A stretch of 64,000 nucleotides of DNA, taken from NCBI GenBank assembly GCA_965248265.1, contig CBDFJF010000002.1, positions 1,280,001 through 1,344,000 of the forward strand. The letters are read 5' to 3'. The notes beneath the pieces are model-generated. The model made no database searches and was not told where the DNA came from. It saw only the letters and a list, made by a program, of their open reading frames with translations. A program made the position numbers and the translations under genes. Positions 13,223 through 64,000 of this stretch are shown here, in pieces. The stretch's first letter is position 1; each line of letters opens with the position of its first letter. Source of the DNA: Candidatus Latescibacterota bacterium. Its GTDB lineage: Bacteria; Latescibacterota; UBA2968; UBA8231.

Positions 13223-13968
13223 GAACTCTCCTGTTCCGCCTGTTCCTTTTGTCCTGCCATGATCAGGGTGTTCGAAAACGCGTGTCCGTACACCTCCACT
13301 CGCGCCTTGCACGAGTCCGCCTTGCCGGCCAGGTACCGGTACGCCAGGATCGTCGGGATCGCGACCACCAGCCCGGTCGCCGTCGTGCCCAGGGCCTGCG
13401 ATATCCCTCCGGCTACCACTCTCGGATCTCCGGTCCCGGCCTCTGCGATGGATTCGAATGCGATGATCATACCCATGATCGTTCCCAGCAAACCCAGCAG
13501 CGGACTGATATTGCCGATCATCTGCAGTATGGACAGATGTTTTCCCAGGTAACCTTTCAAGGCCTCCTCGGTCTCGATCACCAGTTCATCCTTCAAGTCC
13601 GTCAGCGCCCTCTCCATCACCAGAAACCGTGCCACCTGGCCTCCTCCTCCGGCCTCCGACAGACGGATGATCTGGTCGTGCGTCCCCTGGAATTCCCGCT
13701 GCTCCATCATCAGGACGTCGTAGCGCTGCAACAGAGATGCAAACACAAAGTTGAGAACTCCCTTTCCACGATTGCACTCCTCAACCACCGCATCCCCTCC
13801 TCTGCTGACCAGTGAAGCTTCCACTTGGTCCAGTTGCTCCTGGGCTCTCTCGCGGTTGGGAAGGCCGCGGAACACGAAGAAGCGCTCAATGATGAAGGCG
13901 AGGGAGAAGATGGCGCACCCGATCAGGGGTACCATCACCGGCCCTCCGCTCTGAATGACTTCCAACAT
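13219..13968 (-). CDS. exbB: MotA/TolQ/ExbB proton channel family protein
   Basis: GGPVMVPL..IIER, SPLLGLLGTIMGMI, GGISQALGTTATGLVVAIP. Confidence 0.9.
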   Translation of the reverse strand: MLEVIQSGGPVMVPLIGCAIFSLAFIIERFFVFRGLPNRERAQEQLDQVEASLVSRGGDAVVEECNRGKGVLNFVFASLLQRYDVLMMEQREFQGTHDQIIRLSEAGGGGQVARFLVMERALTDLKDELVIETEEALKGYLGKHLSILQMIGNISPLLGLLGTIMGMIIAFESIAEAGTGDPRVVAGGISQALGTTATGLVVAIPTILAYRYLAGKADSCKARVEVYGHAFSNTLIMAGQKEQAEQESS

Positions 13969-42089: not shown

Positions 42090-42148
42090 TTTTTTTTTCG
42101 TTTTTTTGCTCTTTTTTTCTTGGTTCTGGAAGATCGACGATGTATAAT
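42090..42148 (+). promoter_or_regulatory. Sigma70-type promoter with phased T-tracts upstream
   Basis: TTGGTT (42120-42125), 17-bp spacer, TATAAT (42143-42148); T9, T7, T7 tracts at ~11-bp spacing upstream. Confidence 0.6.
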
Positions 42149-42199: not shown

Positions 42200-42613
42200 A
42201 TGGCGCGGCATCGACCGAAAGTGAGCTTCATCTCAGAAGAAACGGTCGACCTGACGCCCTTGATCGACTGCGTTTTCATGTTGTTGATCTTCTTCATGGT
42301 CACCACCGTCTTCATCCATGCACGAGGACTGGATGTGGACTTGCCCAGAGCCTCTCAGGCCACTGAGCAGCAGGAGAAGAAGGACATCAACATCATCATC
42401 GAGCGGGACGGTCGCATCGAGATCGGTGGTGAGGCGGTACTCGCTGGAGAGTTGCGCGCCCGCATTGAGCGCGCGATGGTGGAAAATCGAAACGACAACG
42501 TGATCATTCAGGGAGACCGGGGAGCTGCTCAGTCGCGGGTGGTCGAGGTCGTGGACGCAGCGAAGGGGGCTGGGGTAAAGGGAATCGCCTTTGCCAAGCT
42601 ACAAGGATCGTGA
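42200..42613 (+). CDS. exbD: Biopolymer transporter ExbD/TolR
   Basis: VDLTPLIDCVFMLLIFFMVTT, LDVDLP, VIIQGD, VVEVVDAAK. Confidence 0.93.
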   Translation: MARHRPKVSFISEETVDLTPLIDCVFMLLIFFMVTTVFIHARGLDVDLPRASQATEQQEKKDINIIIERDGRIEIGGEAVLAGELRARIERAMVENRNDNVIIQGDRGAAQSRVVEVVDAAKGAGVKGIAFAKLQGS

Positions 42614-42658
42614 CAGCCTCGGAACAAGAGAACGGTCGAGTGGTGCGATGAAGACTTA

Positions 42659-43072
42659 ATGGCACGGATACAGCGCAGGAGCCTTGTTGGGTCGGTGGAG
42701 ATGGAGTTGACGCCGTTGATCGACTGCGTGTTCCTGCTGTTGATCTTTTTCATGGTGACGACGGTTTTCAAGCAACCCTACCGGTTGAAGGTGTTGCTGC
42801 CCTTGGCGATAGAGGCCGTCATCATCGAGGAAAAGAAACTGGTGGCCACGATCGACCGGGGCGGGACCATGGAGGTGAACCGTTTCCCGGTGACGCCCGA
42901 AAGTTTGGAGGGCGTGTTGACTCGGGAGAAGGAGGGGGTGCGGGTGGTGACGTTGATCATTCGCACGGACAAGGATACGGGTCATGGACTGGTCCTTGAC
43001 ATGATGGAGACGGCGAAGCGGATCGGGATAGAGAAGATCGTGCTCGCTACTGAGAAGAAGGAGGCAGGATAG
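42659..43072 (+). CDS. exbD: Biopolymer transporter ExbD/TolR (second copy)
   Basis: MELTPLIDCVFLLLIFFMVTT, LKVLLP, LIIRTD, VLDMME. Confidence 0.93.
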   Translation: MARIQRRSLVGSVEMELTPLIDCVFLLLIFFMVTTVFKQPYRLKVLLPLAIEAVIIEEKKLVATIDRGGTMEVNRFPVTPESLEGVLTREKEGVRVVTLIIRTDKDTGHGLVLDMMETAKRIGIEKIVLATEKKEAG

Positions 43073-43095
43073 CTGAAAGCATCCTGCGAGGCAGG

Positions 43096-43216
43096 GAGGG
43101 CGTGTTGACGAGGAGGACACGCGTCACGGATTGGTCCTCGACATGATGGAAACGGCCGAGAAAATCTCGGCATCGAGAAGATCGGTCTGGCAACGGAGAA
43201 GAAAGCGGAGGCCTAG
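43096..43216 (+). pseudogene. Degenerate 3' fragment of a third exbD copy
   Basis: EGVLT / DTRHGLVLDMMETAEK / LGIEKIGLATEKKAEA* across shifting frames, matching the C-terminus of the preceding ExbD. Confidence 0.8.
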
Positions 43217-43248
43217 CTAGGGACGCCTGGTCCCCGGGGATTTTAAAA

Positions 43249-43782
43249 GTGCTTGGATTTCGAGGTGGTTTTTTACTACTTTGTGGCGGATTGGCCCTTC
43301 TCACTTGTTCCAAAGAGGAAGGCCCACAAAAAGACGAAGGCGCAAAACTCGCTGCCCTCAAGGCGGCGAAGGTACAAGGTCAGACCTATCTGGATGTTCA
43401 CTTCGTGCTCGGCAGCAGCTTGGAAGAATTGGTCGCGCGCTTCGGTGAACCCGACGCCTATCGCCCGCAGCTGGGGAACCAGCCGTATGGGAATATCAAA
43501 TGGAAGGATCTGAAAGGGGTGACGGTTTTCGGCATCGTCAAGGACAGTACATGCGCTTACGTGAACTACAAGTTCGACAAGCTGGACCCTTTCGACGAGA
43601 CGGAGGCGTTCAGGATTATTGGGGTCGAACGACCTGACGACGATCCGGCGGTATCGGTACTCAAAACCGGGGTCACGAAGTGGTATCCGTTCGAGCACTA
43701 CCATCACCTGACGGTCAGTCCGCAGCAAAAGAATGTCAGTATCAAAGGTTTTGAGTTTGCGATGGGGCCTGGAACGTCGTAG
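43249..43782 (+). CDS. Hypothetical lipoprotein
   Basis: Hydrophobic leader ending LALLTC followed by SKEEG; 177 aa. Confidence 0.6.
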   Translation: MLGFRGGFLLLCGGLALLTCSKEEGPQKDEGAKLAALKAAKVQGQTYLDVHFVLGSSLEELVARFGEPDAYRPQLGNQPYGNIKWKDLKGVTVFGIVKDSTCAYVNYKFDKLDPFDETEAFRIIGVERPDDDPAVSVLKTGVTKWYPFEHYHHLTVSPQQKNVSIKGFEFAMGPGTS

Positions 43783-43823
43783 GGCGTCCAGGCGGAACAC
43801 TATTATCCTAATTGCTAAGGCAG

Positions 43824-43857
43824 AATCAACCTGAAACAGCGGAAATCAACCCGAAAC
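43824..43857 (+). repeat. 14-bp direct repeat with 20-bp period in intergenic region
   Basis: AATCAACCTGAAAC (43824-43837) and AATCAACCCGAAAC (43844-43857). Confidence 0.6.
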
Positions 43858-43963
43858 GAGCAGAAAGGAGGAGACTCGACCGCGGTGCTGATTGTGTCTA
43901 ATTGTGTGGGATGAAGGAAGCGAGTTGTTGTCAGCGATAAAAGAACCCAAGGAGCATGAGAAG

Positions 43964-45955
43964 ATGAAAGTCAAATTGACATTAATGTCCGTGGCCATCC
44001 TCACCCTCTGTGCGTCTCTGACGTACGCGGGGACCGCTGGCTACGAGTTTGTGCGCAGCGAGGATCCGGTGATTCTCGGGATTGATGTGGGGAATGTGAG
44101 CTACAATTTTGACGGCAATGCCGAGGTTCCCTTTACGCTGTCGGGCACCCAAGCAACCGTCTATCTGGCGATTTACACCACCGACCAGGCCACTCCAGGT
44201 GGCTTCGGCGGCCCGGGTAGGCCTGAATGGAATGGCGGCCACGCCCTGCTTCGCGCGCCGGGGATCCCCAACATGGTGAAAGTGGTCGAGTGCGGCCAGT
44301 ATGATGTTGGAGATGGTAGCTGCTTGTGGGATGGCACGGATTGGGCCGGAGACGACGTCGAGCCGGGCGCCTACCGGCTCTATGTTCTGGGCTACGACAA
44401 CATCACCGATGCCAACTGGATTGCCGTTACGGGTGCCGGGTTCCGGAACCGCACCAGCACGGTGAAGGTCTTGCAGGGCCAAGGATATATGCACACCAGC
44501 CCCAACAAGATTGGCAAGGAAAATGAGGGGCCAAGAAACGAGTACACGTATGGCATGGGCGGTGCCTTCACGCTGTATCCGCTCCCACCGGGGAATTGGC
44601 TGGAAGTCGACGACCCATGGGATATGATGGCCCCATTTACAGTTGAATTGCCGGAATACGACTTAGGAGAGAACGACGACGGGAACCCAATAAGGGTCCT
44701 GGGTGGCTCGGCACATGGCGTGGCCATCGATCCTCAAGACTTCTCCAGGAACTGGATGTTCGGCTATAACGGTGTAGGCGCCATCGGCGTTACCGTAGAT
44801 TGGGATTCGCAGACATCCGAGCCCATGGAGGGCTTCGGGGAACCACCGGCTAGCTGGCAGGCGCAGATCGCTCTGGGCGACCATATCAATTTCTTCCACT
44901 CCATACAGTACTGGGATGGCTTCCTGTACATGGGCAACGGGTGGTTGAACGATCCCCCGGCCGCCGGTATCTACGAGCTGGATTCCAGCACGGGCGAAGT
45001 CACCGATGTCATCGACGTCAGTGAGTGGATGGTACGCGAGCAATACGGTCACGACCCGGAAGTTACCGAGTCAACTCTCGCCGCGAGCATGATCAACTGC
45101 ATAGGGATCGATGAGTCAGGGTTCGTCATGTCCGCTGGCGGTTGGGGTCCAAGTTCGCTCAATCAGGTTCCGCTCAAGGTCGACTGGAACGGCGATCTCG
45201 TCTACCAGAACCATACAGGGGACGGCTTCAATGACAACATATGGGCAGGCGAAGCCGCGGCACTGGGTGTTGAGTCTGTGACGGATGGTGAGTCTCATGC
45301 GGTTTCCATATCTCGTGGGGCTATCCCGGGATTCGCCTTCATGACTGAGGCCTCCAAGGGAGACATGGCCCGCCAGCCGGCCTACGGAGCGGTCTACGGC
45401 CCCGATGGCGCCGGGATCTTTCACGCCCAGGGCCCCAATATCCCGCTCACCAATCACGAGGCGACTGGTTCGGGGACGAACATGATCCACGAGCAATCTG
45501 ACTGGGACGGACTCTATATCCTGGTTGCCGAGAAGGCCGTGGGGGAAGAGGATGGTTTTGTTGAGCGGACGGGTGGCCATCAGGTCGCTCATTGGCCGTT
45601 CCGGATCTCGCAGGCTCTGATCGGCACCAACCTCGATGATACGGCGATCGCGGAGGTCCCTTCCGCCGTGACGCCCGAGCAGGTCGAACTGGGTGATGCG
45701 TATCCCAACCCGTTTAACCCAACGACGACGATCGAGTTCGCCGTTCCCACCAATGGCCTTGCGACAGTGACAGTACTGAACACGCAGGGCCAGGTGGTGA
45801 ACACGCTCGTCAACGAGTTTGTGTCAACCGGGACCTACCGTACCACCTGGGATGGCATGAACGCGAACGGTGAGCTGGCTGCCGGCGGTCTGTACTTCTA
45901 CCGCCTGCGGGTCGGTGGCCAAGAGGTGACCAAGAAGATGACGTTCCTCAAGTAA
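43964..45955 (+). CDS. Secreted protein with N-terminal FlgD-like domain and C-terminal FlgD/T9SS type A-like sorting domain
   Basis: Signal peptide MKVKLTLMSVAIL..YA; WDGTDWAGDDVEPGAYRL; C-terminal AYPNPFNPTTTIEF, WDGMNANG, GLYFYRL, KKMTFLK; start ATG 43964. Confidence 0.8.
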   Translation: MKVKLTLMSVAILTLCASLTYAGTAGYEFVRSEDPVILGIDVGNVSYNFDGNAEVPFTLSGTQATVYLAIYTTDQATPGGFGGPGRPEWNGGHALLRAPGIPNMVKVVECGQYDVGDGSCLWDGTDWAGDDVEPGAYRLYVLGYDNITDANWIAVTGAGFRNRTSTVKVLQGQGYMHTSPNKIGKENEGPRNEYTYGMGGAFTLYPLPPGNWLEVDDPWDMMAPFTVELPEYDLGENDDGNPIRVLGGSAHGVAIDPQDFSRNWMFGYNGVGAIGVTVDWDSQTSEPMEGFGEPPASWQAQIALGDHINFFHSIQYWDGFLYMGNGWLNDPPAAGIYELDSSTGEVTDVIDVSEWMVREQYGHDPEVTESTLAASMINCIGIDESGFVMSAGGWGPSSLNQVPLKVDWNGDLVYQNHTGDGFNDNIWAGEAAALGVESVTDGESHAVSISRGAIPGFAFMTEASKGDMARQPAYGAVYGPDGAGIFHAQGPNIPLTNHEATGSGTNMIHEQSDWDGLYILVAEKAVGEEDGFVERTGGHQVAHWPFRISQALIGTNLDDTAIAEVPSAVTPEQVELGDAYPNPFNPTTTIEFAVPTNGLATVTVLNTQGQVVNTLVNEFVSTGTYRTTWDGMNANGELAAGGLYFYRLRVGGQEVTKKMTFLK

Positions 45956-45993
45956 AGAGAGCGCCACCATCAACCGTCACTGATCGGTTCAAT

Positions 45994-46036
45994 GAGGTGG
46001 AGGGGGGCTTGTGTCCCTCCTCCACCTCTTGTTTTC
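45994..46036 (+). terminator. Rho-independent terminator
   Basis: GAGGTGGAGGGGGG / CCCTCCTCCACCTC stem (one G-T pair) followed by TTGTTTTC. Confidence 0.75.
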
Positions 46037-46091
46037 AACAGCGAATGTTTCACAAAAAGACGTCGGGAAGATGATTTTCGAGGCGGTCTGA

Positions 46092-48173
46092 ATGACGAAG
46101 CGTAGCCACAAGCAACTCAGCAACATAGCCCTTTGGATTTTTCTTCTCACCCTGCCCACGCCGGTGGCGTCGGAGGTGGTGTGCGAATCTGGGGTGTGCC
46201 AGGAGGGTTCCTGGGCTAGCACGGTATGGTACTACACCGAATTCGAAGCGGATGAGGCGGGGGACGGCGTCATCCGCGTGACGGCGGCGGATGAGCTTGA
46301 TGATCTGTGGTTCAATGGCGACAGGATCAATCTGAGTAGTTTGACGTCCAGAGACTGGACGCAGATCGAAGTTGATGAGATAGAGGTCGAGAACGGCACT
46401 AACGAAATTCTGGTGGCCGTGACCACTCAGGGGACAGGGGGCGGGAGCGGGTTGTTGTTGGAGCTGGAGACCGGCGCGCAGCGGACCGGCACGAAGGTGG
46501 GGAATCGGGAGGGGGCATGGCGGTGGTCCAGCGAGGATCCCGACGAAGTCGAGGTGGACTGGGACGATGCCCAGTTGGTCCAGGCCGGCAGCATGGACCT
46601 GACACAGATAGAGGGGCGTACCGATCTATCGGTTGTGCCTGTGGCGGGTTATCCGGGAGACGTGGACATCGGGACCAAGGACGGAGGGATTACGCTGAGC
46701 TTGATCGACGGTCGGAATCTGGCTCTGGGGCAGCCCTCCAACGTCCTGGAAGCCAACGATGGAGTGTTGACCAGCTCGTGGACGCCCGGTGCGAATGCTC
46801 TCAACAAGCATGTGAGCATGGACCTTCGGGAGGTCCGCAGGGTGAGCCGGGTCCGGGTGATCACCAAGGCACCCCGTAGGTCGGGTAGCTATTTTGTCAA
46901 TTCCCTGAAGGGGTATTCGGTTCAGGTGAGCGAGGACCAGTTCCGGTGGTCGGAGGTGGCGGTTCTGCACGGGATCACGGAGTACGAGGAGACGACGGTC
47001 CGTTTTGAGCCTGCCCTGGCGCGATACATACGGATTGTGGTCGCGGAGATAGACGGGATCAGTGCGCCGGATGTGGCCGAGGTCGAGGTGTATGGTGAAG
47101 CGTACAGTGCCGCCGGGACGTTCGAATCGGAACCCCTGGATCTCGACGAACCCAGCGCGAAGAACATCGGCAAGATTACCTGGCAGGCAGACGTCCCTGA
47201 GGGTACCTCGGTAGCTCTCCAGTTCAGGACTATGGTGGATGCCGTGTGGAGTCCGTGGACGAGGGAATACGCCTATGCGGACAGCAATACCTTCGTCGAG
47301 TCGCCCGAGCCTGCGAGCCAGTTCCAATACCGTGTACAACTGTCGACGAGCGTGGAGGGCGCTACGCCCCGGTTTCGGAGTATCACGGTGGAGTCCTCTG
47401 CCGATGATGTACCCGCCGAATCAGCCTCGGGGCGGATTTCGCCGGTGACCGTGGAGATGGGGACGGATACGACATTTACCTACGATCTAGATTTGGAAAT
47501 CTCAGGGCAGAATAGTGGTGTTGAGCGGCTGATCATCGCGGTTCCGGGGCCGGTGACGCTCGACCCGGTTGCGCCCGTCGACGGGCTGGAAGGCAGTGGC
47601 AGTGTGGTGGAATTGGATAGTGTCAAGGTGACGTCGAGGGGGTTGGAGATTCCCTTCGATCCTCCATTGAAAGACCTGGATGTGCAGTTGTCGATTCATA
47701 TGAGGGCCACGATGTATGCGATAGCTCACTCCTGGAGCGCACAACTACTCGCACTGGATTCGGAGAATCCGCAGAACGTGGTCGAAGATACCCGGGGCGG
47801 GGGATGGTTGGTTTCCGCCCCTCAAGTGTTGGGTCGAGTTTTGCTAGACGCTCAGGCACAGCCCGCCGTTTTCACGCCGAACGGGGATGGCAGAAACGAC
47901 CACGCCACCATCGTTTTCACGCTGGCCAAGGCAGAGGGTGCACCCGTATCGGTTCGGGTTTTCTCTTTGGACGGATCGCTTGTTCGGGAGCTGCACACGG
48001 GTCCACTATCGGCGCGACGGTATGATGGCAGTTCGCAGTCCCCGCCGGGTCGCTGGGATGGAACAGATGCCCACGGAAATGTCGTGCCCCCGGGGATTTA
48101 TCTGTATGAGTTGCTGGTGGAAGCGGATGAAGGGGATGAGCGACGCATGGGCACCGTAGGCCTCGTGTATTAG
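46092..48173 (+). CDS. Secreted multi-beta-sandwich protein with discoidin (F5/8 type C) domain and C-terminal FlgD/CHU_C (type B CTD-like) domain
   Basis: Signal peptide; NLALGQP..ANDG..SSW, YSVQVSED..W, ARYIRI..EVEVYG; VFTPNGDGRND, WDGTDAHG..VPPGIYLY. Confidence 0.8.
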   Translation: MTKRSHKQLSNIALWIFLLTLPTPVASEVVCESGVCQEGSWASTVWYYTEFEADEAGDGVIRVTAADELDDLWFNGDRINLSSLTSRDWTQIEVDEIEVENGTNEILVAVTTQGTGGGSGLLLELETGAQRTGTKVGNREGAWRWSSEDPDEVEVDWDDAQLVQAGSMDLTQIEGRTDLSVVPVAGYPGDVDIGTKDGGITLSLIDGRNLALGQPSNVLEANDGVLTSSWTPGANALNKHVSMDLREVRRVSRVRVITKAPRRSGSYFVNSLKGYSVQVSEDQFRWSEVAVLHGITEYEETTVRFEPALARYIRIVVAEIDGISAPDVAEVEVYGEAYSAAGTFESEPLDLDEPSAKNIGKITWQADVPEGTSVALQFRTMVDAVWSPWTREYAYADSNTFVESPEPASQFQYRVQLSTSVEGATPRFRSITVESSADDVPAESASGRISPVTVEMGTDTTFTYDLDLEISGQNSGVERLIIAVPGPVTLDPVAPVDGLEGSGSVVELDSVKVTSRGLEIPFDPPLKDLDVQLSIHMRATMYAIAHSWSAQLLALDSENPQNVVEDTRGGGWLVSAPQVLGRVLLDAQAQPAVFTPNGDGRNDHATIVFTLAKAEGAPVSVRVFSLDGSLVRELHTGPLSARRYDGSSQSPPGRWDGTDAHGNVVPPGIYLYELLVEADEGDERRMGTVGLVY

Positions 48174-48278
48174 CCTCTTCCGGCCGTGGGCAGGAATGAC
48201 CGCGAATTCCTCAAGGGCCGGGGGATCGTATTCCCCTCCTCAATTCGTTCTCGTGGACCTCTGACTAAGGGAGCAGCC

Positions 48279-51032: not shown

Positions 51033-51084
51033 CGGCTGCGCGCCGAGGCTCGGGCGCGGCCTGCACCATGGGAGTTTCTGGACA

Positions 51085-53985: not shown

Positions 53986-54086
53986 GCCAGAATCATGCAC
54001 TGCATCGTGCGTAAAGGCAAAAGACCGGGGTGCGGCTATCGAGGGGGGCCTGTGTCTCTAGTACCTCGCGGCGCAAGTCCGTTGCC

Positions 54087-54230
54087 GGTTGAGCGCCGAT
54101 CCATCCCGGCTCGCGGCGTGGGACCGAACTCTTGGAGTTCGGCCTCGTCCCTGAGCGCGCTCCGCTCGCCGTATTCCCTAATACGACTCGGTCGCGCGCC
54201 TTGCGAGCCGGGCACCTCGACGTTCAAACC
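54087..54230. repeat. ~144-bp multi-hairpin intergenic element (MITE/REP-like or structured RNA leader)
   Basis: Imperfect terminal IR GGTTGAGCGCCGA/TCGACGTTCAAACC; CCCGGCTCGC/GCGAGCCGGG; CCGAACTC-TTG-GAGTTCGG; CGTATT-CCCT-AATACG. Confidence 0.55.
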
Positions 54231-54231
54231 T

Positions 54232-57177: not shown

Positions 57178-57196
57178 TGCAGGGTGACTATTTGTA

Positions 57197-58477
57197 ATGG
57201 CAAAAGGCGATGTGCATCCTTCTGAAAAGCGCGAGTTCTCGGATCCGGCGACGGATGTGCGCGTCATCCAGCTCACGGACCAGCCGTGTGTCAACACGAG
57301 CGCCTATTACAATCAGGAGCAGTTCATCGGTGGGTCAGAGCGATTCGTCTTCATCTCCAACCGCAGCGGTGAAAGTCACCTCTACACGGTGGAGGTGGCT
57401 TCCGGCAAGATCGTGCAACTGACCGACGAGGAGCCCTCGGGCGGCTTCACCGTCGACCCCGAACGCGGCATCGTCTACTTCGGGCGCGATCGGCAGTTTG
57501 TCGCCCTGGATGTGGAGTCGTTGCAGGAGGAAGTGGTAGCCGAGTCACCGGAAGGCTGCGGGCCGATCGGCGGACCGGACCTGTCGTCGTGCGGGCGTTA
57601 TCTCGTCCTCGGCTGTGGCCCGGCGGACAGGAAGAAGAGTTACGACTACCGGTACGGCAGAGAAGCGATGGTGCTCCTGGTCGATGTCGTGGAGAAACGG
57701 CAGGAAGTGGTTTATCATGGGCCGAGCGCGGACAACCAGGCGGCGCCCGACAGCCACCACTTCATCAGTCGCGGCGACCCGTCCTACGTGTGGTTCGGCA
57801 GCTATGCCAGGCTGCAGCCCACCGGCATCAAGACAGCCTGGGTCATGAAAGTCGATCTCGAGCGCCTCAAACCCATACACGACCCGATACTGCTGTTCGA
57901 TCAGCAGCCGTATGACTACATCAACCACTACTACTCAGCGCCCAATGCTCACGTCGAATCGTTTCACTACCAGAACATGGCCTACGACCGGGACGGGATC
58001 CCGATCGCTCAGGAGCAAAAGCTGCCGATGCTTCTCGACATCGATCTGGAACGACGCACGACCAGCCGGTGGGTGTTCCCGGGGCTGGCACCGACGCATT
58101 TCAAGTGCAACAACGCCGACGACATGTGGGCGGGGGATCGGGCCGACCCCGGTTTTCTCTGGCTCGAAGGTCGCGGTGAAGACGGCAGTGCCTATATAGA
58201 TGGAGACGCTGAGAACGCCGATTACTGGTTGCACTACTGGCCTGAATCCAGCGCGCCGAGCTTCCCCGCACACGAGTGGATCGGGGTGTTCCGCAAGCAC
58301 CATTCCTCCTACCTTGAGGTTCGTCCGCTGGTTCGGCACAAGACCACCTGGTGGGAAGGTGTCCATCCGCATCCGGTGTTCTCGCCTGATGATAAATGGA
58401 TTGCATACTGCGCCGGGGAGAAAGAGCGATCTCAGCTCTACCTGGCCGAGGCGGTCTGGCCAAGATGGCTCACGTAG
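57197..58477 (+). CDS. Oligogalacturonate lyase (PL22)-like beta-propeller protein
   Basis: MAKG..DPATDVRVIQLT, YYNQ, FISNRSG..LY, IVQLTD, HPHPVFSPD. Confidence 0.75.
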   Translation: MAKGDVHPSEKREFSDPATDVRVIQLTDQPCVNTSAYYNQEQFIGGSERFVFISNRSGESHLYTVEVASGKIVQLTDEEPSGGFTVDPERGIVYFGRDRQFVALDVESLQEEVVAESPEGCGPIGGPDLSSCGRYLVLGCGPADRKKSYDYRYGREAMVLLVDVVEKRQEVVYHGPSADNQAAPDSHHFISRGDPSYVWFGSYARLQPTGIKTAWVMKVDLERLKPIHDPILLFDQQPYDYINHYYSAPNAHVESFHYQNMAYDRDGIPIAQEQKLPMLLDIDLERRTTSRWVFPGLAPTHFKCNNADDMWAGDRADPGFLWLEGRGEDGSAYIDGDAENADYWLHYWPESSAPSFPAHEWIGVFRKHHSSYLEVRPLVRHKTTWWEGVHPHPVFSPDDKWIAYCAGEKERSQLYLAEAVWPRWLT

Positions 58478-58490
58478 CTGAACGGAGTCT

Positions 58491-61400
58491 TTGATGTCAT
58501 TTGCGTGGATAATCGTGTCGTTGAGTCTGGTGGTTACGGCGTGGACTCGGCATGTGCCGTCCGCGGAGGACGTGCAGGCCTCTTTTCGAAAGGCGCAGCG
58601 CTTCTACGGGGCAGAAGCATACGACCAAGCGGTCGAGCAGTACGAAAAGGTCGGCCAGGTAAGCAGCACGCTGCTCCGCCTCGAACAGGTCACCGTGACG
58701 GTGGGCGATATTACGGCACCGATCACCGAGGCAGCCCTGTACCAGTCGGGCAACGCATACTTCAAGATGGCTCAGGATGCGCGGCGCAAGGTGCACCGGG
58801 CGGAGAGCGCGACGGATCGAGAGAAAGCCGAACGTCAGGCCCAGGCATTCCTGGAACGGTCGGTCGGATTCTTCGAGCGAGTGGAATCCGAGGCCACGGC
58901 TGAGGGATTGCGGGTGCTGGCACAGAGTCGTCTAGTGACGACCTGGTACGAAACGAAGGATTACGAACAGACCATAGCTGAAGCTCAAACGCTCATATCG
59001 AAGTACCCCGACAGCAAGTTCGTGGCAAACGCGATGTACGATATCGCCTGGTCGTACTATGAGCAAGGTGACTACGAGTCCAGCATCCAGGCGTTCGAGG
59101 CGCTGATCCGACATTCCCCTACGGGCTTCCGGGCGGACCGGGCGCAGTTTCAGATCGCGGAATGCTACTATCTCCAGAACGACTATGAGAAGGCCATCAG
59201 TCACTATCAGCAGCTGGTGGACCAGGCCAACGTGTACGGATTGACCGGCCGGGATTTGATGAGGATGCGGCGGGAGAAGCTGGCGGGATTGGTGGACGAG
59301 ACGGCACTGGAGCTGGCCGCCAAGGCGCAGTTGAAGATCGGGGATGGGTATTCGAAGCTGGGGCAGCTCGACAAGGCGACCGAGGCATTCGAGCGGGTGA
59401 TCGAACTGTTCTCGGCGGAAAGGGGCTTCGTCGAAGAGGGTTATCGCCGTCTGGCGGATATGTACTATGAGCAAGGGGATCTCGAGCTGTCCGTGCGTAC
59501 CTACAGGACCGCCATCGACCGGGTACGCGATCGGTTCTTCCAGGCCCGTATGCAGTCTCAAATGGCCCGGCGTTATGCTGACAGCGGACGTTTCGACGAG
59601 GCCATCGAGGAGTATGAGGTCTACATCAAGGGATATGAGGAGGTGGCGGCACGTGCGGGCTTTCCAGTGGACGAGGCGGATTACAATATAGGCAGGGCAT
59701 ACTATGACAAGGGACAACAGGCGCTAGCCGCGAGTCAACGGTCGATGGCCATACCGCATTTCCGTGAGGCGACCGCCCGGTATGAGAGCACGCTGAAGAC
59801 CTATCCCGACACCCGGCTAAAGGTGGACTTGCAGTTCAATATCGCCCTCTGCCAGCAGTTCATGGACGATGCGTCCTCGACGGCCCGGGCCCTGGAGGGA
59901 TTTCAGGGCATCATCAACGACCATCCCGATGACCCACTTGTCGAAAGCTCGCTCTTTCAGATCGCCCGGATATTCTACGACCAAAAAGAGTACGCCAGGG
60001 CTGTGGAGATTTACGGTGAATTGCTCCAGCGATTCCCCGATTCGCCCCAGGCGTCGATGGTGCATTTCGAACGGGGTATCTGCCGGCGGGACCAGGGAGA
60101 GCAGGACAAGGCGCTCGAGGCATTCCTGATGGTGCTGCCCGAATCGCCGCTGTTTGCCGATGCGCGCGTGACCGCCGGGGAAATCCTGATCCGCCAGGGG
60201 GAGTTTGTCCGCGCGTTGGAGATCATTGACGAAGCGCTGGCCTTTCAAGTCACGCCCGAGGTGCCCATACGCTATCTGTACATCAAGGCCAAAGCCTTTA
60301 CCGGAGAGATGGCCTACGAAGAGGCTGCGGGGGCGTTCACGGGCATCATCGAAGGGGCGAAGGATCAGCCCCAGTTGGTGGAGAGTTCGCTCTATGCCAG
60401 GGGAACCGCCCTGCTGAGCTTGGGGCGACATGGAGAAGCCGACCGAGACTTCGAGCGTGTCGTAGACGAGGCGGATGACCCCGTGATGCAACGGGCAGCC
60501 CGTCGGATGCTGGGGATGTCCCTGATTCAACAGGGGCGTGAACTAGAGGCCAGCACCAACTACGAGACCCTGGCCGCCAATGCCACTGATGTGCAGGAGA
60601 AGGCGGAATATCTCCTTCTGTTGGCCGAGCTCTATCACGGGCTCAAGACCTACGATCGCGTCGTGCGGATCTGCAGCGATATCGTGGCCATCGCTTCAGA
60701 TGAGAGCCTGCAGGGAGGTGATTCGATCCAGGAGAAGGCGCTTTTTCTGCTCGGGGACGCGCATAGTCGCATGGAGGAGCATGCCGCCGTTACAGACACG
60801 TTCAGAGAAGCTCTGAGGCGCTACCCGGACTCCATATACGCGCCGGACATGACCTTTGTGCTGGGGCTGAGCCTCATGCAATCGGGGCGGCGAGAGCAGG
60901 CGGCGCTCGAGCTCGAGCGTTTCCTTGAGCGCTATGAGGGCGATGCCAATACGGCGCATGCGCTATACTACCTGGGACATATCCGGTTTGGTCACAGGGA
61001 GTTCGCGCCCGCCATACGTGTGTTCGAGCGGCTGGTTGCGGAGTTTCCCCAACACGAGGCGGCGGCTGATGTCTGGTTCAGAATCGGGGAAAGCTACTTC
61101 AACCTGGAGCAATATGAGCAGGCGTTGAACGCATATGGAAGCGTCGTCGACGACTGGCCCGGGCCGGAGCAGGACGACGCGTTGTATAACAGCGCCTGGG
61201 TGTACATGGAATTGAACCGCGGAGAAGAAGCGGCAGCCACTCTAGGCCGGCTGCTCACGGAGTTTCCCGACAGCGAACTGGCTCCCAACGCCCAATTTAC
61301 CATCGGAGACTACCATTACAACGAAGGGCAGTATGAGCAGGCCCTGGATGCCTATCAGGGGCTCATGAAGGACCATCCCGACGCTGAGGTTGCGGCGGAA

Positions 61401-61739
61401 GTGCCGAAGTTGATCGAGGATTTGAGGGAGGCGGTGGCTTTTACCAGGTATCAAGCGATCGTTGTCGAATTCCGCCAGGCCATGACAACCAAGGACAAGG
61501 AGTCGCTGCGCCGCATCCTGTCCCGTATGAAGAGACTGGCCGAGGAATATTCAGGCACCGAGACCGAACTAGGCATTCTGAACAACATGGGTATTTCCTA
61601 CGAGTCCCTGAACGAATGGACGGAGGCCGTAGGTGTGTATGAACGCGTGATCGACCGTCATGAGGCGGGGACAGGTACTCCCGATGCGCATCAGTTCGCC
61701 AAGCAGCACCGGGATTGGATCGTTGCCAATCGGCTGTAA
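58491..61739 (+). CDS. Large periplasmic tetratricopeptide-repeat protein (BamD/CpoB-like TPRs)
   Basis: N-terminal hydrophobic leader; many repeats such as AQFQIAECYYLQNDYEKAI, LLQRFPDSP, AQFTIGDYHYNEGQYEQAL. Confidence 0.9.
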   Translation: MMSFAWIIVSLSLVVTAWTRHVPSAEDVQASFRKAQRFYGAEAYDQAVEQYEKVGQVSSTLLRLEQVTVTVGDITAPITEAALYQSGNAYFKMAQDARRKVHRAESATDREKAERQAQAFLERSVGFFERVESEATAEGLRVLAQSRLVTTWYETKDYEQTIAEAQTLISKYPDSKFVANAMYDIAWSYYEQGDYESSIQAFEALIRHSPTGFRADRAQFQIAECYYLQNDYEKAISHYQQLVDQANVYGLTGRDLMRMRREKLAGLVDETALELAAKAQLKIGDGYSKLGQLDKATEAFERVIELFSAERGFVEEGYRRLADMYYEQGDLELSVRTYRTAIDRVRDRFFQARMQSQMARRYADSGRFDEAIEEYEVYIKGYEEVAARAGFPVDEADYNIGRAYYDKGQQALAASQRSMAIPHFREATARYESTLKTYPDTRLKVDLQFNIALCQQFMDDASSTARALEGFQGIINDHPDDPLVESSLFQIARIFYDQKEYARAVEIYGELLQRFPDSPQASMVHFERGICRRDQGEQDKALEAFLMVLPESPLFADARVTAGEILIRQGEFVRALEIIDEALAFQVTPEVPIRYLYIKAKAFTGEMAYEEAAGAFTGIIEGAKDQPQLVESSLYARGTALLSLGRHGEADRDFERVVDEADDPVMQRAARRMLGMSLIQQGRELEASTNYETLAANATDVQEKAEYLLLLAELYHGLKTYDRVVRICSDIVAIASDESLQGGDSIQEKALFLLGDAHSRMEEHAAVTDTFREALRRYPDSIYAPDMTFVLGLSLMQSGRREQAALELERFLERYEGDANTAHALYYLGHIRFGHREFAPAIRVFERLVAEFPQHEAAADVWFRIGESYFNLEQYEQALNAYGSVVDDWPGPEQDDALYNSAWVYMELNRGEEAAATLGRLLTEFPDSELAPNAQFTIGDYHYNEGQYEQALDAYQGLMKDHPDAEVAAEVPKLIEDLREAVAFTRYQAIVVEFRQAMTTKDKESLRRILSRMKRLAEEYSGTETELGILNNMGISYESLNEWTEAVGVYERVIDRHEAGTGTPDAHQFAKQHRDWIVANRL

Positions 61740-61752
61740 GGGAGAAGAGCTC

Positions 61753-62304
61753 GTGAAACACGTTATTTGCGTTGTGTTGTGTGCGGCGTTTGTCTGTGGG
61801 ACGGCGTGGGAGGTGAGAGGCCAGGAAGAGATGTTTGCCGAAGAGGTCCGGGTGTCGCGGAATAGGGCGGTGATGCTGTCCGTGCTCTTTCCCGGTCTGG
61901 GACAGATGGCCTCGGGGCAAAAGCAAAAGGGTGGCGCGCTCTTTTTGAGCGGGCTGGTTTCACTGATCGTGGCGGTAGACGCACACGAGTCATACAACAC
62001 GCGTCGGGATGTGTACGCGTCATCCCGGAGCGAGTATGACGCCCTGCGTGTGGAGGGCACTCACCAGGAGGCGGAGGTCAAGTGGCAACGTGTGGTGGAT
62101 CTGAACGATGACCTGGACAACCTGCACAGTCGCCGGCAGATCTTCGGATACGCGGCGGTCGCGATCTATGCCTTGAATGTGGTAGATATCCTGTTGCGGC
62201 ATCCGGGAGATGCGACCGCTGGGCAAGAGATTGACCGCCAGCTTCTGGTGTCAGCAGGTCCCGTAGGTGGCACGACGGGGATCGTGGTATCGAAGAGCTT
62301 CTGA
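61753..62304 (+). CDS. DUF5683-like exported/membrane protein
   Basis: Signal peptide; AVMLSVLFPGLGQM, IYALNVVD, C-terminal GIVVSKSF; GTG start with GGAG RBS. Confidence 0.65.
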   Translation: MKHVICVVLCAAFVCGTAWEVRGQEEMFAEEVRVSRNRAVMLSVLFPGLGQMASGQKQKGGALFLSGLVSLIVAVDAHESYNTRRDVYASSRSEYDALRVEGTHQEAEVKWQRVVDLNDDLDNLHSRRQIFGYAAVAIYALNVVDILLRHPGDATAGQEIDRQLLVSAGPVGGTTGIVVSKSF

Positions 62305-62356
62305 ATGGAGGAGGATCGTGTTACGGAATAGAGAGATAGCGACGGTGGGGCCATAC

Positions 62357-62737
62357 GTGAACATCCTTTTGTTCGGCATGCTGTTGGCAGGCTCAGTCTC
62401 CTGCAGCAAGGAGCACGAGGCTCCTGTTGCGTTTCACCAGACGTTGCTGGGCACGCCTACCGAGCTCGAGGCTCAGTTTCAGGCCAGGCAGGATGTCGTC
62501 CTGACGTGGACGATGGAGGACATCGCGAATGTATCGGGGTATGTAGTCTCGTTGTCCGATACCCTGGGACTTCTGAGGGAGTCCCGAGTGACCGAGACGA
62601 CCCACACCTTCGAGGAGTCCAGTTTGATCGCCGACGGGTTTACCGATTCGACCTGGTTCTTCTTCCGGGTCAGTGCGTTGGATTCATCCCTGTTTCGAGG
62701 GCCTGCCGCGCGTCTCGATACGGTGTTCGTCTTTTAG
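62357..62737 (+). CDS. Lipoprotein with fibronectin type III-like domain
   Basis: Lipobox-like GSVSC; PTELEA..VVLTW..GYVV..FFRVSALD; start uncertain (62318 or 62357). Confidence 0.6.
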   Translation: MNILLFGMLLAGSVSCSKEHEAPVAFHQTLLGTPTELEAQFQARQDVVLTWTMEDIANVSGYVVSLSDTLGLLRESRVTETTHTFEESSLIADGFTDSTWFFFRVSALDSSLFRGPAARLDTVFVF

Positions 62738-62793
62738 CAGGCTGGAGGAAGGGCAATGGCGCAACGCGGTCGATTTGAAGACGAGCCGATGGG

Positions 62794-63948
62794 TTGAGGT
62801 TGGATCGGCTGCTAGCCGAGAACCGTCGGCTGGTCCAAGCGGGCCTGGTCATCGCCCTGTTGGCACACGCAGGGCTTTTCACCTACCTGGTGATCTCCAA
62901 GTCGGTTATCAAGGAAGCTCAACCGCCCAGCCTCGAGTTTGTGATGCGGACCCCGAGGCTCACCAAACCATTCGAGTTGAAGAAGAAACGGGTTCAACGC
63001 AAGATGACGCGAAGGAAAGTCGAGACGAACGTGGTTCCCGACATCGCCATCACCGAGCGCATCAATCGTCCGGATGTATTCGGGACGGTGACGACGTTCA
63101 ACTACGCCATCGAAAGCGGGGCGAGTGTGGGTGGTCAAGCTGTCGTCCCGGAGATCACGGCTTTCGCGCGCCTGGCCAGCACCAAGGATCCCGAGAAGCG
63201 TCTCAGCATGCAGGAAGAGTTTCTCGATCTGGAGGCATTGGACACAGGAAAATACAAGGGACTCGTAATCCAGAGTCCGACCAACAAGCAGGACATCCAG
63301 GGGTTCATTTATCTGGCGTTGGCAGTGGGAGAGGAGCTGGATCCGCCGACGCCTCGGGCGATCCCGCAACTGGCCAGGGCCGTCAACAAGTACACCATGA
63401 TCAATGCCAAAGTGGAAGATCGCCTGCAACTGGATTCGCGGGATCTTTTCAAGGCACCTTTCGTGTACATCACGGCGAACAAGGGATTCAACCTCACCAC
63501 CCAGGAGGCCCGCAATCTGGGGGAATACATGAGGATGGGGGGGTTCGTGTTCGCGGAGAACGGCGTCCCAGGTCTGGAGTACGGCCCGGCTGAAGCCTCG
63601 TTGCGGAAGATGTTAAAGGATGTGCTCGGGAAGGATTATCGGCCCCAAATGCTCCCGTACGAGCACCCCATCCATCACAGCTTTTTTGACTTCAACGATG
63701 GACCGCCACCCGGTGGAGAGGTCACAGGCGCCACGGGGGGCGTTACGATTCCTTCGCCGCATCTGGAGGGGATCTTCCTGGAAGGACGGCTGGTAGCGGT
63801 GTATTCGGACAAGGCGTACGGGAAGATCTGGCAGAGAGAGTTTGAGAATGAACCACAGTTGAAGATGGGGTTGAACCTGGTCGTATTCGCCCTGACGCAA
63901 CAGGGCTCGATCGCGCAGCAGCAGATCGATTTCTACAGCCAGCAATGA
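62794..63948 (+). CDS. DUF4159 domain protein with N-terminal TM anchor and extended linker
   Basis: TM AGLVIALLAHAGLFTYLVI; APFVYIT, NLGEYMRMGGFVFAEN, HPIHHSFFDF, LEGI..GRLVAVYS, MGLNLVVFALT. Confidence 0.8.
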   Translation: MRLDRLLAENRRLVQAGLVIALLAHAGLFTYLVISKSVIKEAQPPSLEFVMRTPRLTKPFELKKKRVQRKMTRRKVETNVVPDIAITERINRPDVFGTVTTFNYAIESGASVGGQAVVPEITAFARLASTKDPEKRLSMQEEFLDLEALDTGKYKGLVIQSPTNKQDIQGFIYLALAVGEELDPPTPRAIPQLARAVNKYTMINAKVEDRLQLDSRDLFKAPFVYITANKGFNLTTQEARNLGEYMRMGGFVFAENGVPGLEYGPAEASLRKMLKDVLGKDYRPQMLPYEHPIHHSFFDFNDGPPPGGEVTGATGGVTIPSPHLEGIFLEGRLVAVYSDKAYGKIWQREFENEPQLKMGLNLVVFALTQQGSIAQQQIDFYSQQ

Positions 63949-64000
63949 TGAAAAACGGACTTCCACCGATCGCCCTGCCGGACGGGACCGCGTTCCAGCT
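63945..64000 (+). CDS. 5' end of a third beta-helix paralogue (truncated by window edge)
   Basis: ATGA overlap with upstream stop; MMKNGLPPIALPDGTAFQ resembles LPILLPDGTQF and EPILLPDGTEFQ. Confidence 0.6.
   Translation, partial: MMKNGLPPIALPDGTAFQ

Follow-up and report, generated by a model that had tools for sequence, protein, structure and literature searches.

What does a run of envelope genes headed by two ExbD genes do for the uncultured marine Latescibacterota bacterium that carries it? The genes lie in a 64,000-nt stretch of DNA (the window), whose proteins were searched against Pfam and NCBIfam models. The ORF list and these searches place 13 co-oriented plus-strand ORFs, all envelope genes, in 42200-63948 (Table 1), in agreement with the preliminary description of about 22 kb of such genes; the domains named there (two ExbD, FlgD/CTD-tailed proteins, a PL22-like domain, TPR, DUF5683 and DUF4159) were likewise recovered. 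The same window also carries sugar-acid catabolism, GH106 and beta-helix genes, a setting that would suit import. In the proposed HMM comparison with described systems, no cassette protein reached the cut-off of the Plug, TonB_dep_Rec, SusD, SprA, PorP or Bat/vWA models, and no plug or TonB box was recognised in the cassette, consistent with the earlier view that it has no SusC/SusD or plug-type receptor. Our literature search found no description of the cassette. It is a conserved, lineage-specific envelope system with an ExbD pair, outside the known systems.

Table 1. Features of the cassette, its motor gene and its downstream neighbours (window positions; entries beginning L006 are positions in locus L006)
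Feature	Position	Strand	Basis or remark
ExbB/TolQ-family motor subunit	13219..13968	-	MotA_ExbB E 4.4e-27
Candidate promoter, TTGGTT (42120-42125), 17-nt spacer, TATAAT (42143-42148)	42120..42148	+	by eye, after T-rich tract
ExbD1	42200..42613	+	PF02472 E 5.5e-29
ExbD2	42659..43072	+	PF02472 E 2e-24
177-aa probable lipoprotein, LLTC lipobox	43249..43782	+	no Pfam or NCBIfam match
687-aa T9SS cargo, type A C-terminal sorting domain	43892..45955	+	FlgD_ig E 1.1e-12; TIGR04183 34 bits vs cut-off 23
693-aa surface protein: beta-sandwich chain, F5/8 type C (discoidin), CHU_C-type T9SS tail	46092..48173	+	Pfam
Barrel B1, position-1 subfamily, 948 aa	48186..51032	+	family alignment A1
Barrel B2, position-2 subfamily, 966 aa	51085..53985	+	AF2-modelled protein
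Barrel B3, position-3 subfamily, 1060 aa	53995..57177	+	family alignment A1
426-aa beta-propeller-like protein, PL22-like N-terminus	57197..58477	+	Pectate_lyase22 37 bits vs cut-off 30, plus PD40
1082-aa periplasmic TPR protein, N-terminal hydrophobic anchor or signal	58491..61739	+	many TPR models; YbgF/BamD-type repeats
DUF5683 small membrane protein	61660..62304	+	PF18935 E 1.7e-9
156-aa fn3-like small protein, possibly lipoprotein	62267..62737	+	fn3 E 0.0017, below cut-off
Single-pass membrane DUF4159 protein	62794..63948	+	PF13709 E 4e-31
585-aa beta-helix protein, start only	63945..64000	+	rest beyond window
423-aa TonB_C-like lipoprotein	L006:2727-3998		two genes downstream of DUF4159, past window end
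OPT-like inner-membrane permease DUF6785/DUF6784	L006:4161-6119		downstream of TonB_C-like lipoprotein

Related loci were retained in 79 instances, and conservation was counted over the 49 of these with full context, across which gene order and content are conserved. In all 49, a barrel comes after the CTD/discoidin protein, either next to it or past one intervening gene; at least three barrels occur in 44, and a DUF4159 protein or a lipoprotein partner of the TonB_C type in 47. Each genome holds several diverged cassettes (ten assemblies contribute 2-4 loci each to the 79, counted from contig and isolate names), and many partial modules of barrel, CTD protein and permease are present in the window's genome. 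Of 151 genomes surveyed in the phylum, 94 have the barrel family and 92 the TonB_C lipoprotein family, with equal patterns in every taxonomic family except f10 (13/13 vs 11/13); both are present in 63/63 genomes of the window's own family and in 0/30 and 0/19 genomes of two others. Neighbourhood conservation and phylogenetic profiling, the checks put forward in the preliminary description, both came out in its favour.

Accessory genes vary between related cassettes and include FG-GAP/ASPIC, FGE-sulfatase-like, GDSL lipase, PhyH and SurA-like PPIase genes and PMT_2 glycosyltransferase-TPR fusions, while enzymes degrading carbohydrates or peptides are rare. A second locus in the window's genome running from ExbB to DUF4159 also has a TPR protein, a barrel and CHU_C proteins. 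RNA libraries of three marine studies yielded contigs, 90-99% alike, that match 27, 22 and 17 of 30 operon bins; this is weak evidence of expression because RNA libraries can contain DNA.

The motif PLIDCVF, with the membrane-helix Asp, is kept in both ExbD proteins. The clear sigma70 promoter reported ahead of them stands as to its perfect -10 element, seen by eye; a consensus scan upstream of ExbD1 called none, because the -35 element matches at only three of six positions. No ExbB gene adjoins the ExbD pair here, and a lone one lies 29 kb away. Its top NCBIfam match, below the cut-off of that model, is TolQ. Counterparts 44-69% identical to it occur in 21 related loci, and wherever both were located (11 loci) the counterpart ends just upstream of ExbD1-ExbD2. 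The lone ExbB belongs to the cassette as its motor subunit and has been displaced in the window's genome.

The DUF4159 protein comprises a short cytoplasmic N-terminus, one hydrophobic helix, a conserved basic linker and a periplasmic DUF4159 head, its nearest solved relative being 4i66 (E 2e-13). It directly follows ExbB-ExbD-ExbD in the two-barrel loci L028, L069 and L070. The membrane-helix His that had been taken as its anchor is present in the window copy and in only 11 of 21 aligned orthologs, so the feature is not a conserved one. Nor can the system be called TonB-less, as had been proposed: the C-terminal domain of the downstream 423-aa lipoprotein passes the AgmX/PglI (GltG/GltJ) TonB-like model (64 bits, cut-off 40), and all 14 PDB matches of its family profile are TonB C-domains. 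This domain is nearest to the gliding proteins GltG and GltJ, not to the TonBs of uptake systems. A canonical TonB and 30 Plug-domain matches occur elsewhere in the genome.

The three barrels fall in no family of Pfam or NCBIfam, and a search for solved sequence relatives gave none. Identity to B2 is 35% for B1 and 31% for B3; 41 relatives of B2 were found, none with a Pfam domain; two copies of B3 elsewhere in the genome are 84% and 74% identical, and B3 itself probably starts near Met80, before its signal peptide. The AlphaFold2 model of B2 (pLDDT 73, pTM 0.77) contains about 25 long antiparallel strands, counted manually from the DSSP string, and its structural matches are outer-membrane barrels without exception. 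SlpA, MtrB and LptD match best; the longest alignment is to SlpA (8ae1_A, Z 13.6, rmsd 8.4, 424 aligned residues), and 348 residues align with LptD. The ~950-aa proteins are, on this model, a new family of plug-less outer-membrane barrels. In the tree, the proteins of each position come together as a single clade (support 100), and loci group similarly inside all three; sequence comparison indicates that the barrels are three ancient orthologous subfamilies, one per position. In each, Asp and Asn together make up 30-34% of a 100-aa block that bears two [DN]x[DN]x[DN]G motifs, compared with 11-13% of the protein as a whole; the block begins at residue 573 in B1 and matched no Pfam model. Thus, of the triple Ca-rich barrels originally described, the three paralogs and, in the model, the barrel fold are borne out, and calcium binding is suggested by the motif only.

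The 687-aa protein, which probably starts near the signal peptide at residue 25, has a counterpart in 39 of the 49 loci. The family of the 693-aa protein (AF2 model all-beta, pLDDT 89.5) retains F5/8C in 33 of 34 members. A TPR gene occupies the position of the 1082-aa protein in 38/49 loci by tblastn, relatives of the 177-aa protein occur in 25, and the DUF5683 and fn3-like genes in 22 and 18. The two proposed lipoproteins fared unevenly: the 177-aa protein has its lipobox, and a lipobox-like Cys pattern recurs in 18 of 33 of its relatives and in five of 21 relatives of the fn3-like protein. The embedded PL22-like and beta-helix genes are local accessories; the PL22 match is real and covers the first 120 residues of its protein, with such a gene in only two of 49 loci, and the beta-helix gene lies almost wholly past the window. 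DUF6785 has 36 matches in the genome, about 34 of them near full length, and recurs beside barrels and CTD proteins at other loci, a paralog expansion resembling that of nutrient-uptake loci. In a language-model comparison its neighbours are peptide/OPT transporters (score 0.79), which is no more than a lead, and the OPT model scored one paralog at 23.5 bits (E 3.9e-5), below its cut-off of 25.8.

Starting from what was observed (which genes are present, their conservation and phyletic co-occurrence, the barrel fold, the TonB_C homology and the ancient three-way split of the barrels), we tentatively favour an uptake system of PUL-like type, energised by the motor and confined to part of the Latescibacterota. 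Two T9SS-exported surface proteins, one with the conserved discoidin domain, would capture a polymer or oligomer, which would cross the outer membrane through the non-redundant giant plug-less barrels B1, B2 and B3, probably as a hetero-oligomer. A dedicated ExbB-ExbD1-ExbD2 proton motor would drive a two-part TonB analogue, composed of the membrane-anchored DUF4159 protein, at TonB's place in exbB-exbD-exbD operons, and the adjacent lipoprotein with its TonB_C/GltG-type domain; the 1082-aa TPR protein may serve as scaffold of the periplasmic part, and the OPT-like DUF6785/DUF6784 permease would carry the substrate over the inner membrane. Physical contacts, transport direction and substrate are what we infer here. 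If true, this would be a new route by which nutrients are drawn through the outer membrane. Against import stand the missing plug and TonB box, the GltG/GltJ-nearest domain, a motor rarely near the barrel (only 14-16 of 49 loci have ExbB or ExbD 10 kb or less from the anchor barrel), heterogeneous accessories, a longest fold alignment to a structural protein, Deinococcus SlpA, and the sub-threshold OPT link.

One alternative is that the cassette is distantly analogous to the Agl-Glt/Nfs core complex and encodes an envelope machine that transduces force to move or tension surface proteins, for adhesion, gliding, surface-layer handling or envelope maintenance, with no part in nutrient transport. 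The lipoprotein's only specific matches are the AgmX/PglI domain, GltG and GltJ, and the surface CTD proteins could act as adhesins. Fibrobacter and Latescibacterota both belong to the FCB group. In PMC3169522 the core complex was found in Fibrobacter, and its parts list there is the same as that of the cassette. We nevertheless consider this rather unlikely: the equivalog models fall far below their cut-offs (GltG 41 vs 650, GltJ 17 vs 450 and GltE 31 vs 225 bits), the cassette showed no cytoplasmic parts of Glt/MglA type, and several diverged cassettes and partial modules per genome fit substrate-specific loci better than one motility machine.

The invariable succession of CHU_C-type protein and barrel instead recalls a docking platform for T9SS cargo, in which the barrels hold the discoidin protein on the surface, as PorP/SprF-like and PorV proteins do for type B sorting domains in Bacteroidota. 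CHU_C is found on 28 of 34 family members, L028, L069 and L070 have a PorV/FadL-like gene between the CTD protein and the first barrel, and a canonical T9SS (SprA, PorV and three PorU genes) is encoded elsewhere in the genome. Such a role is compatible with import; as the whole explanation it is unlikely, since the PorP/SprF and PorV models of Pfam and NCBIfam miss B1-B3, and three 950-aa barrels, a motor, a TonB-like protein and a permease far exceed an anchor's needs. Export or assembly of a surface polymer or outer-membrane lattice, modelled on TPR-plus-barrel exopolysaccharide porins or SlpA-type barrels, is more improbable still. The giant TPR protein does adjoin the barrels, PgaA, PelBC, BcsC and AlgE are among the fold matches of B2, with SlpA complexes as the top Foldseek matches, and divergent barrels of the same genome have PMT_2 glycosyltransferase-TPR fusions and SurA-like PPIases as neighbours; yet Z is similar for every outer-membrane barrel matched, SlpA_C, with its cut-off at 35 bits, reached only 19.8, the cassette searches turned up no synthase, Wzx/Wzy or SLH domain, and the TonB_C-type partner and OPT-like permease point inward. 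That unrelated envelope genes came together by chance, as differing accessories and the distant ExbB might suggest, is scarcely credible, being contradicted by the order and content conserved over 49 loci, the matching phyletic patterns and the parallel barrel clades.

Among known systems, the closest architecture is the Agl-Glt core complex of Myxococcus and relatives, whose members, according to PMC3169522, are AglR, AglQ, AglS, GltD, GltE, GltG and GltC, comprising one TolQ/ExbB-like and two TolR/ExbD-like proteins, a TPR protein of ~1,100-1,200 aa and a TonB-like protein. The cassette similarly combines one ExbB/TolQ and two ExbD/TolR subunits with a TPR protein longer than 1,000 aa and a protein passing the cut-off of the AgmX/PglI-type TonB_C-like domain, clustered as a unit that has no known function outside the myxobacteria. 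It differs in remaining far from the equivalog models, in carrying the TonB_C-like domain on a lipoprotein and not on a membrane-anchored FHA protein, its own anchor bearing a DUF4159 head, and in having three ~950-aa barrels, T9SS cargo and several copies per genome. GltA and GltB are similarly small to GltH. The latter is listed at 209 aa (PMC3169522).

With type B T9SS and PorP/SprF/PorV, the cassette shares the gene for a CHU_C-tailed protein adjoining one for an outer-membrane barrel, and PorV-like genes in its two-barrel versions, whereas its barrels are roughly threefold larger and the genes for the T9SS core lie in other parts of the genome. Deinococcus SlpA, MtrB and LptD resemble it through the B2 model, of which they are the top fold matches; they have no sequence relationship to the barrels, and the cassette is without an SLH domain, cytochrome partner or LptE. 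The most likely mode of action resembles that of TonB-ExbB-ExbD with SusC/SusD: surface binding proteins are encoded beside ~1,000-aa barrels, a TonB_C-type domain goes with a proton motor, the inner membrane has a permease, and one genome holds paralogous loci. Unlike those systems, the cassette has no Plug, TonB_dep_Rec or SusD match, its binding proteins are T9SS cargo instead of SusD-type lipoproteins, its barrels form a fixed trio, and its transducer appears to be split over two genes.

The cassette is a genuine and conserved envelope system with several components, organised around a new family of barrels and a motor of Ton/Agl-like type. It belongs to a genome of 7.3 Mb on two contigs and comprises 13 ORFs that are separated by short gaps or overlap. 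Pfam and NCBIfam searches upheld nearly all of the gene assignments made in the preliminary description. The beta-helix enzyme described there as embedded in the cassette has its start at 63945, almost wholly beyond the window. The clear sigma70-type promoter proposed ahead of ExbD1 retains a perfect -10 element, whereas its -35 element is weak and the site was left uncalled by a consensus scan.

Locations, family matches and recurrence of the cassette genes and of related features. Coordinates without a handle refer to the window; C1 and C2 are contigs of the source genome, and L-numbers denote loci in related genomes or in the same genome. The last column counts loci with full 10-kb flanks.
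Feature	Location	Strand	Family match	Loci
Cassette	42200-63948	+
ExbD, two copies	cassette	+	Pfam/NCBIfam	14/49 (pair)
687-aa CTD protein, FlgD_ig/type A T9SS sorting domain	cassette	+	Pfam/NCBIfam	39/49
693-aa discoidin protein, F5/8 type C domain, CHU_C-type tail	cassette	+	Pfam/NCBIfam
Three paralogs of 948, 966 and 1060 aa (B1, B2, B3)	48186-51032, 51085-53985, 53995-57177	+	no Pfam/NCBIfam family	44/49 (at least three barrels)
CTD/discoidin protein followed by barrel				49/49
426-aa protein, PL22-like N-terminus	cassette	+	Pfam/NCBIfam	2/49
1082-aa TPR protein	cassette	+	Pfam/NCBIfam	38/49
DUF5683 protein	cassette	+	Pfam/NCBIfam	22/49
Small fn3-like protein	cassette	+	Pfam/NCBIfam	18/49
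DUF4159 protein, one hydrophobic helix ahead of the domain	cassette	+	Pfam/NCBIfam	42/49
177-aa lipoprotein				25/49
Downstream lipoprotein, 423 aa	L006:2727-3998			34/49
DUF4159 or downstream lipoprotein				47/49
ExbB, amid sugar-acid genes	13219-13968	-		16/49
Polytopic DUF6785/DUF6784 protein, 652 aa	L006:4161-6119
DUF6785/DUF6784 copies (examples)	L090:11376-13307, L088:2048-3991
1595-aa fusion of M28 peptidase, MacB-like periplasmic domain and FtsX permease, divergent from the ExbD pair	37127-41914	-
Sugar-acid/glycan catabolism neighbourhood around the displaced ExbB: aldo-keto reductase, GFO/IDH/MocA, UxuA-like TIM barrel, enolase-superfamily enzyme, two beta-helix proteins, 1290-aa GH106-like rhamnosidase	10400-29300
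Stand-alone position-3 barrels, same genome	L089:7896-10889, L090:8322-11357	-
Tandem position-2 barrels, close relative (order B1-B2-B2-B3)	L007:9197-14995
Stand-alone lipoprotein N-terminal domain, ~260-aa proteins	C2:2281137-2281838 (own genome), L094:2277-3035
Full-length PorU-type T9SS sortases (a fourth match is partial)	C2:2871983, C2:1023220, C1:1899128
PMT_2 (GT-C type glycosyltransferase) domains fused to TPR repeats, between divergent barrels	L086:7102-9120, L087:7853-9931
SurA/PpiD-like double-PPIase proteins, 560-600 aa, adjoining divergent barrels	L087:12706-14385, L088:318-2015, L091:11170-12915
Further SurA/PpiD-like double-PPIase proteins of the same size range, beside divergent barrels	L094:7066-8865, L044:18463-20178
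FG-GAP/ASPIC-UnbV proteins, many paired with TPR proteins, beside cassettes and divergent barrels	L006:10152-15416; L041, L044, L053, L087, L088, L091
PhyH-type (phytanoyl-CoA dioxygenase family) genes within or beside cassettes	L009:20081-20911, L081:21447-22418, L093:12313-13188, L090:17060-18328

The proposed co-occurrence of these genes in related genomes was borne out. Scanning a single genome from each species returned 262 relatives, from which 79 loci were kept, ten assemblies contributing 2-4 loci each as judged by contig and isolate names. Window proteins were placed by tblastn, and gene order and content are kept in the 49 loci with full context. The phyletic patterns of two families agree with this. 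In a phylum sample, the barrel family was detected in 94/151 genomes and the downstream lipoprotein family in 92/151; both occur in all 63 genomes of the window's own family and neither in four other families (0/30, 0/19, 0/5 and 0/2), f10 being the sole family in which they differ (barrel 13/13, lipoprotein 11/13), and because the sampled genomes are akin to each other, this distribution shows a pattern but carries no statistical weight. Given its occurrence throughout the window's own family, with several copies per genome, the cassette is likely to have a major part in the way these cells interact with their environment.

Sequencing runs containing near-identical DNA are labelled as seawater or marine metagenomes. 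RNA-library contigs from three marine studies, 90-99% alike, cover 27, 22 and 17 of the 30 bins in 42001-62000; this cover consists of contigs only, bins without it carry no meaning, and since RNA libraries can contain DNA, it is a weak hint of operon transcription in relatives.

The barrel family is new. B1, B2 and B3 matched no Pfam model, and none of the 41 relatives returned by a sequence search with B2 carries a precomputed Pfam domain. A profile built from 37 sequences recovered 890 cluster representatives (E <= 0.001) among 1.84 billion proteins. The relatives returned by the B2 search and the genome scan belong almost exclusively to records titled Latescibacterota or Latescibacteria, a few bearing the names Gemmatimonadetes, Gemmatimonadaceae, Handelsmanbacteria or 'uncultured bacterium'. 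Searched against the PDB, the barrel profile found no relative, the only match being a chance one at E 0.02.

The AlphaFold2 model of B2 (pLDDT 73, pTM 0.77) contains ~25 long antiparallel strands, counted from the DSSP string, with tight turns of 2-3 residues alternating with longer loops. A conserved N-terminal segment ahead of the barrel, common to all three subfamilies and bearing the motifs Y-E-N-Y ... Y-R and D-P-F-G-N, was modelled with low confidence. Following the usual orientation rule for turns and loops in outer-membrane proteins, two large insertions, a beta domain (~240-448) and an acidic block (~519-657), would face outward. Foldseek ranked Deinococcus SlpA complexes, MtrB and LptD highest, and a second fold search aligned 424 residues with SlpA (Z 13.6, rmsd 8.4) and 348 with LptD. 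Since outer-membrane barrels of all kinds match at Z 11-14, with TBDT structures among them as generic matches, the fold searches point to no single family; the fold class predicted by the model is clearly that of an outer-membrane barrel. The acidic block holds the majority of the family's invariant columns and, in each paralog, comprises 30-34% Asp+Asn with two [DN]x[DN]x[DN]G motifs, which by themselves suggest that it may bind calcium. Even with the E limit raised to 10, Pfam searches yielded no meaningful match for the acidic blocks of B1-B3 or the inserted domain of B2.

Phylogenetic analysis with FastTree covered 65 barrels from the window and 21 loci picked for diversity from the 79, with position labels set by gene order. 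Positions 1, 2 and 3 formed three clades, each with support of 100, and the grouping of loci was similar within each clade. The barrels therefore triplicated before the cassette spread, each cassette keeping one of each kind, and this history argues for three non-redundant subunits, which probably assemble into a hetero-oligomer. Separately, the two stand-alone position-3 barrels of the same genome, 84% and 74% identical to B3, are recent partial cassette duplications; the less similar copy adjoins a DUF6785 copy (77% identical to the permease described below) as well as a protein that shares 49% identity with the 687-aa CTD protein.

Although the two ExbD genes of the proposed motor are present, no ExbB adjoins them. 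The genome encodes five MotA/ExbB-family genes, of which one lies within the window. Counterparts of this ExbB (44-69% identical) occur in 21 related loci and end just upstream of ExbD1-ExbD2 in the 11 where both were located, which identifies it as the motor subunit belonging to the cassette, here moved 29 kb away. Loci L028, L069 and L070 are arranged as ExbB-ExbD-ExbD-DUF4159; in exbB-exbD-exbD-tonB operons tonB comes last, the slot here taken by DUF4159. The topology of the DUF4159 protein also resembles that of TonB: a short N-terminal stretch in the cytoplasm is followed by a single helix, a basic linker that is conserved, and a head in the periplasm. Its description as His-anchored did not hold up, as a membrane-helix His is found in just 11/21 orthologs, and SxxxH, the TonB anchor motif, could be read from five of the 21 aligned helices.

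The reported lack of a TonB was likewise revised. Two genes past DUF4159, outside the window and beyond the accessory beta-helix gene, the downstream lipoprotein carries a conserved lipobox Cys in place of a membrane anchor, a conserved N-terminal domain and a TonB_C-type C-terminal domain with two invariant Cys. The latter matches the AgmX/PglI TonB-like model (E 8.5e-18, 64 bits versus a cut-off of 40) and touches the GltG, TonB_Cterm and GltJ models; scores for Pfam TonB_C (17 bits versus 24.6) and TIGR01352 (24.9 versus 27.1) were below their cut-offs. Against the PDB, the family profile retrieved TonB C-domains only (14/14 matches, best E 1.5e-5). The lipoprotein and DUF4159 genes are adjacent in 28/49 loci, and the system is probably not TonB-less. 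No single polypeptide of the pair combines an N-terminal anchor with TonB_C, and judging from sequence the anchor and the TonB_C head seem to be divided between the DUF4159 protein and the lipoprotein.

A second, more divergent set in the same genome includes CHU_C proteins, a barrel, a PPIase, a copy of the lipoprotein N-domain, a TPR protein, ExbB and DUF4159, and at another locus a distinct short DUF4159 gene (237 aa) adjoins DUF4175. Across the phylum, some genomes have at least 12 lipoprotein-family matches among the matches listed, and many of these consist of the N-domain alone.

The polytopic DUF6785/DUF6784 protein encoded downstream of the lipoprotein is a putative permease; its family has 36 matches in the genome (~34 near full length) and recurs beside barrels and CHU_C-like proteins at other loci. 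The OPT model (PF03169) scored 23.5 bits against one paralog (cut-off 25.8), and peptide/OPT transporters appeared as language-model neighbours (score 0.79, a lead only), suggesting a weak connection with OPT oligopeptide transporters; searching the PDB with the DUF6785 protein turned up nothing of use. The discoidin protein is modelled as a chain of beta-sandwich domains (pLDDT 89.5), for which fold searches returned multi-domain beta-sandwich proteins only (complement C3, galactose oxidase; TM < 0.2), leaving the discoidin domain as its sole functional lead; the F5/8C domain is kept in 33/34 family members.

Uptake is favoured by the permease, the discoidin protein, the expansion into paralogs and the window's catabolic genes, and we tentatively read the cassette as a motor-energised, PUL-like uptake system. 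Against this, most accessory genes at other loci encode something other than degradative enzymes, the barrels show no plug, the TonB_C-type domain belongs to the gliding (GltG) type, and PMT_2-TPR fusions and SurA-like PPIases sit beside divergent barrels. An Agl-Glt-like force transducer would suit the gliding character of that domain and is nevertheless unlikely in view of the low equivalog scores reported below. An anchor for T9SS cargo is improbable. The genome encodes SprA, PorV and three PorU genes elsewhere, as well as ~47 further matches to the sorting-domain C-terminal part of the PorU model, so that both CTD proteins are cargo of a canonical T9SS; the T9SS core (SprA, PorV, PorU, PorP) has no match in the cassette. 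Still less probable is an exporter or surface lattice, a reading in whose favour the PMT_2 and PPIase neighbours speak; SlpA_C, the S-layer barrel model, reached 19.8 bits against a cut-off of 35 in B2 alone, with no SLH match. A chance neighbourhood is hardly credible given the conserved gene order, and the remaining probability falls to mixed or unforeseen roles. The cassette was also considered as a substitute for the T9SS motor or the canonical TonB and rejected, because the genome encodes a canonical T9SS and a canonical ExbB...TonB locus elsewhere.

In its boldest form, the uptake reading posits a plug-less second class of motor-coupled outer-membrane import gate, a somewhat unlikely scheme as a whole. 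The gate would be a heterotrimer of giant plug-less barrels, opened by a split TonB (membrane-anchored DUF4159 protein plus TonB_C-type lipoprotein); binding proteins displayed through the T9SS would feed it, and OPT-like permeases would drain it. Such a gate would do in Latescibacterota what Sus-type polysaccharide utilisation loci do elsewhere, having arisen independently out of an Agl-Glt-like core. If uptake is correct, motor-energised outer-membrane import is possible without a plug-type receptor. The cassette also presents an ExbBD motor whose transducer is seemingly split between the DUF4159 protein and the TonB_C lipoprotein, adds to the catalogue of barrels a family of giant ones whose members in the window lack a Pfam match, and gives DUF4159, DUF5683, DUF6785 and DUF6784, all of unknown function, a concrete, testable context. 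Latescibacterota are widespread and, to our knowledge, uncultured.

Full-text literature searches on the outer membrane or polysaccharide utilisation of Latescibacteria/Latescibacterota found nothing on the cassette; DUF4159 was found only in the context of the Pfam database, no function was found for DUF5683, and DUF6785/DUF6784 were not found. A genomic survey of Latescibacterota infers polymer degradation and takes it that uptake proceeds by way of non-specific porins together with canonical TonB receptors (PMC4454575). The earlier view that the cassette corresponds to no described system was sustained. Plug (PF07715), the hallmark sought for TonB-dependent transporters including SusC, is absent from B1, B2 and B3 at E up to 0.01 and has 30 matches elsewhere in the same genome. 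TonB_dep_Rec (PF00593, a 22-strand barrel) has no sequence match in the cassette, SusD none in the scanned ORFs of 42200-64000 or the 19 kb downstream, and the Bat operon components vWA, BatD, MoxR and DUF58 none in the cassette. The Agl-Glt core complex, listed in a section of PMC3169522 as AglR, AglQ, AglS, GltD, GltE, GltG and GltC, is described there as clustered in some proteobacteria and Fibrobacter, with unknown function in those organisms. Like that complex, which groups one TolQ/ExbB-like and two TolR/ExbD-like genes with TPR and TonB-like genes, related loci carry ExbB-ExbD1-ExbD2 alongside DUF4159, the TonB_C lipoprotein and a TPR gene. In contrast, GltG scored 41 bits against a cut-off of 650, GltJ 17 against 450 and GltE 31 against 225, and GltD was not among 25 of the 28 families listed for the TPR protein. 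The Agl-Glt core complex is the closest known architecture, likened by its parts list, with equivalog scores far below the cut-offs.
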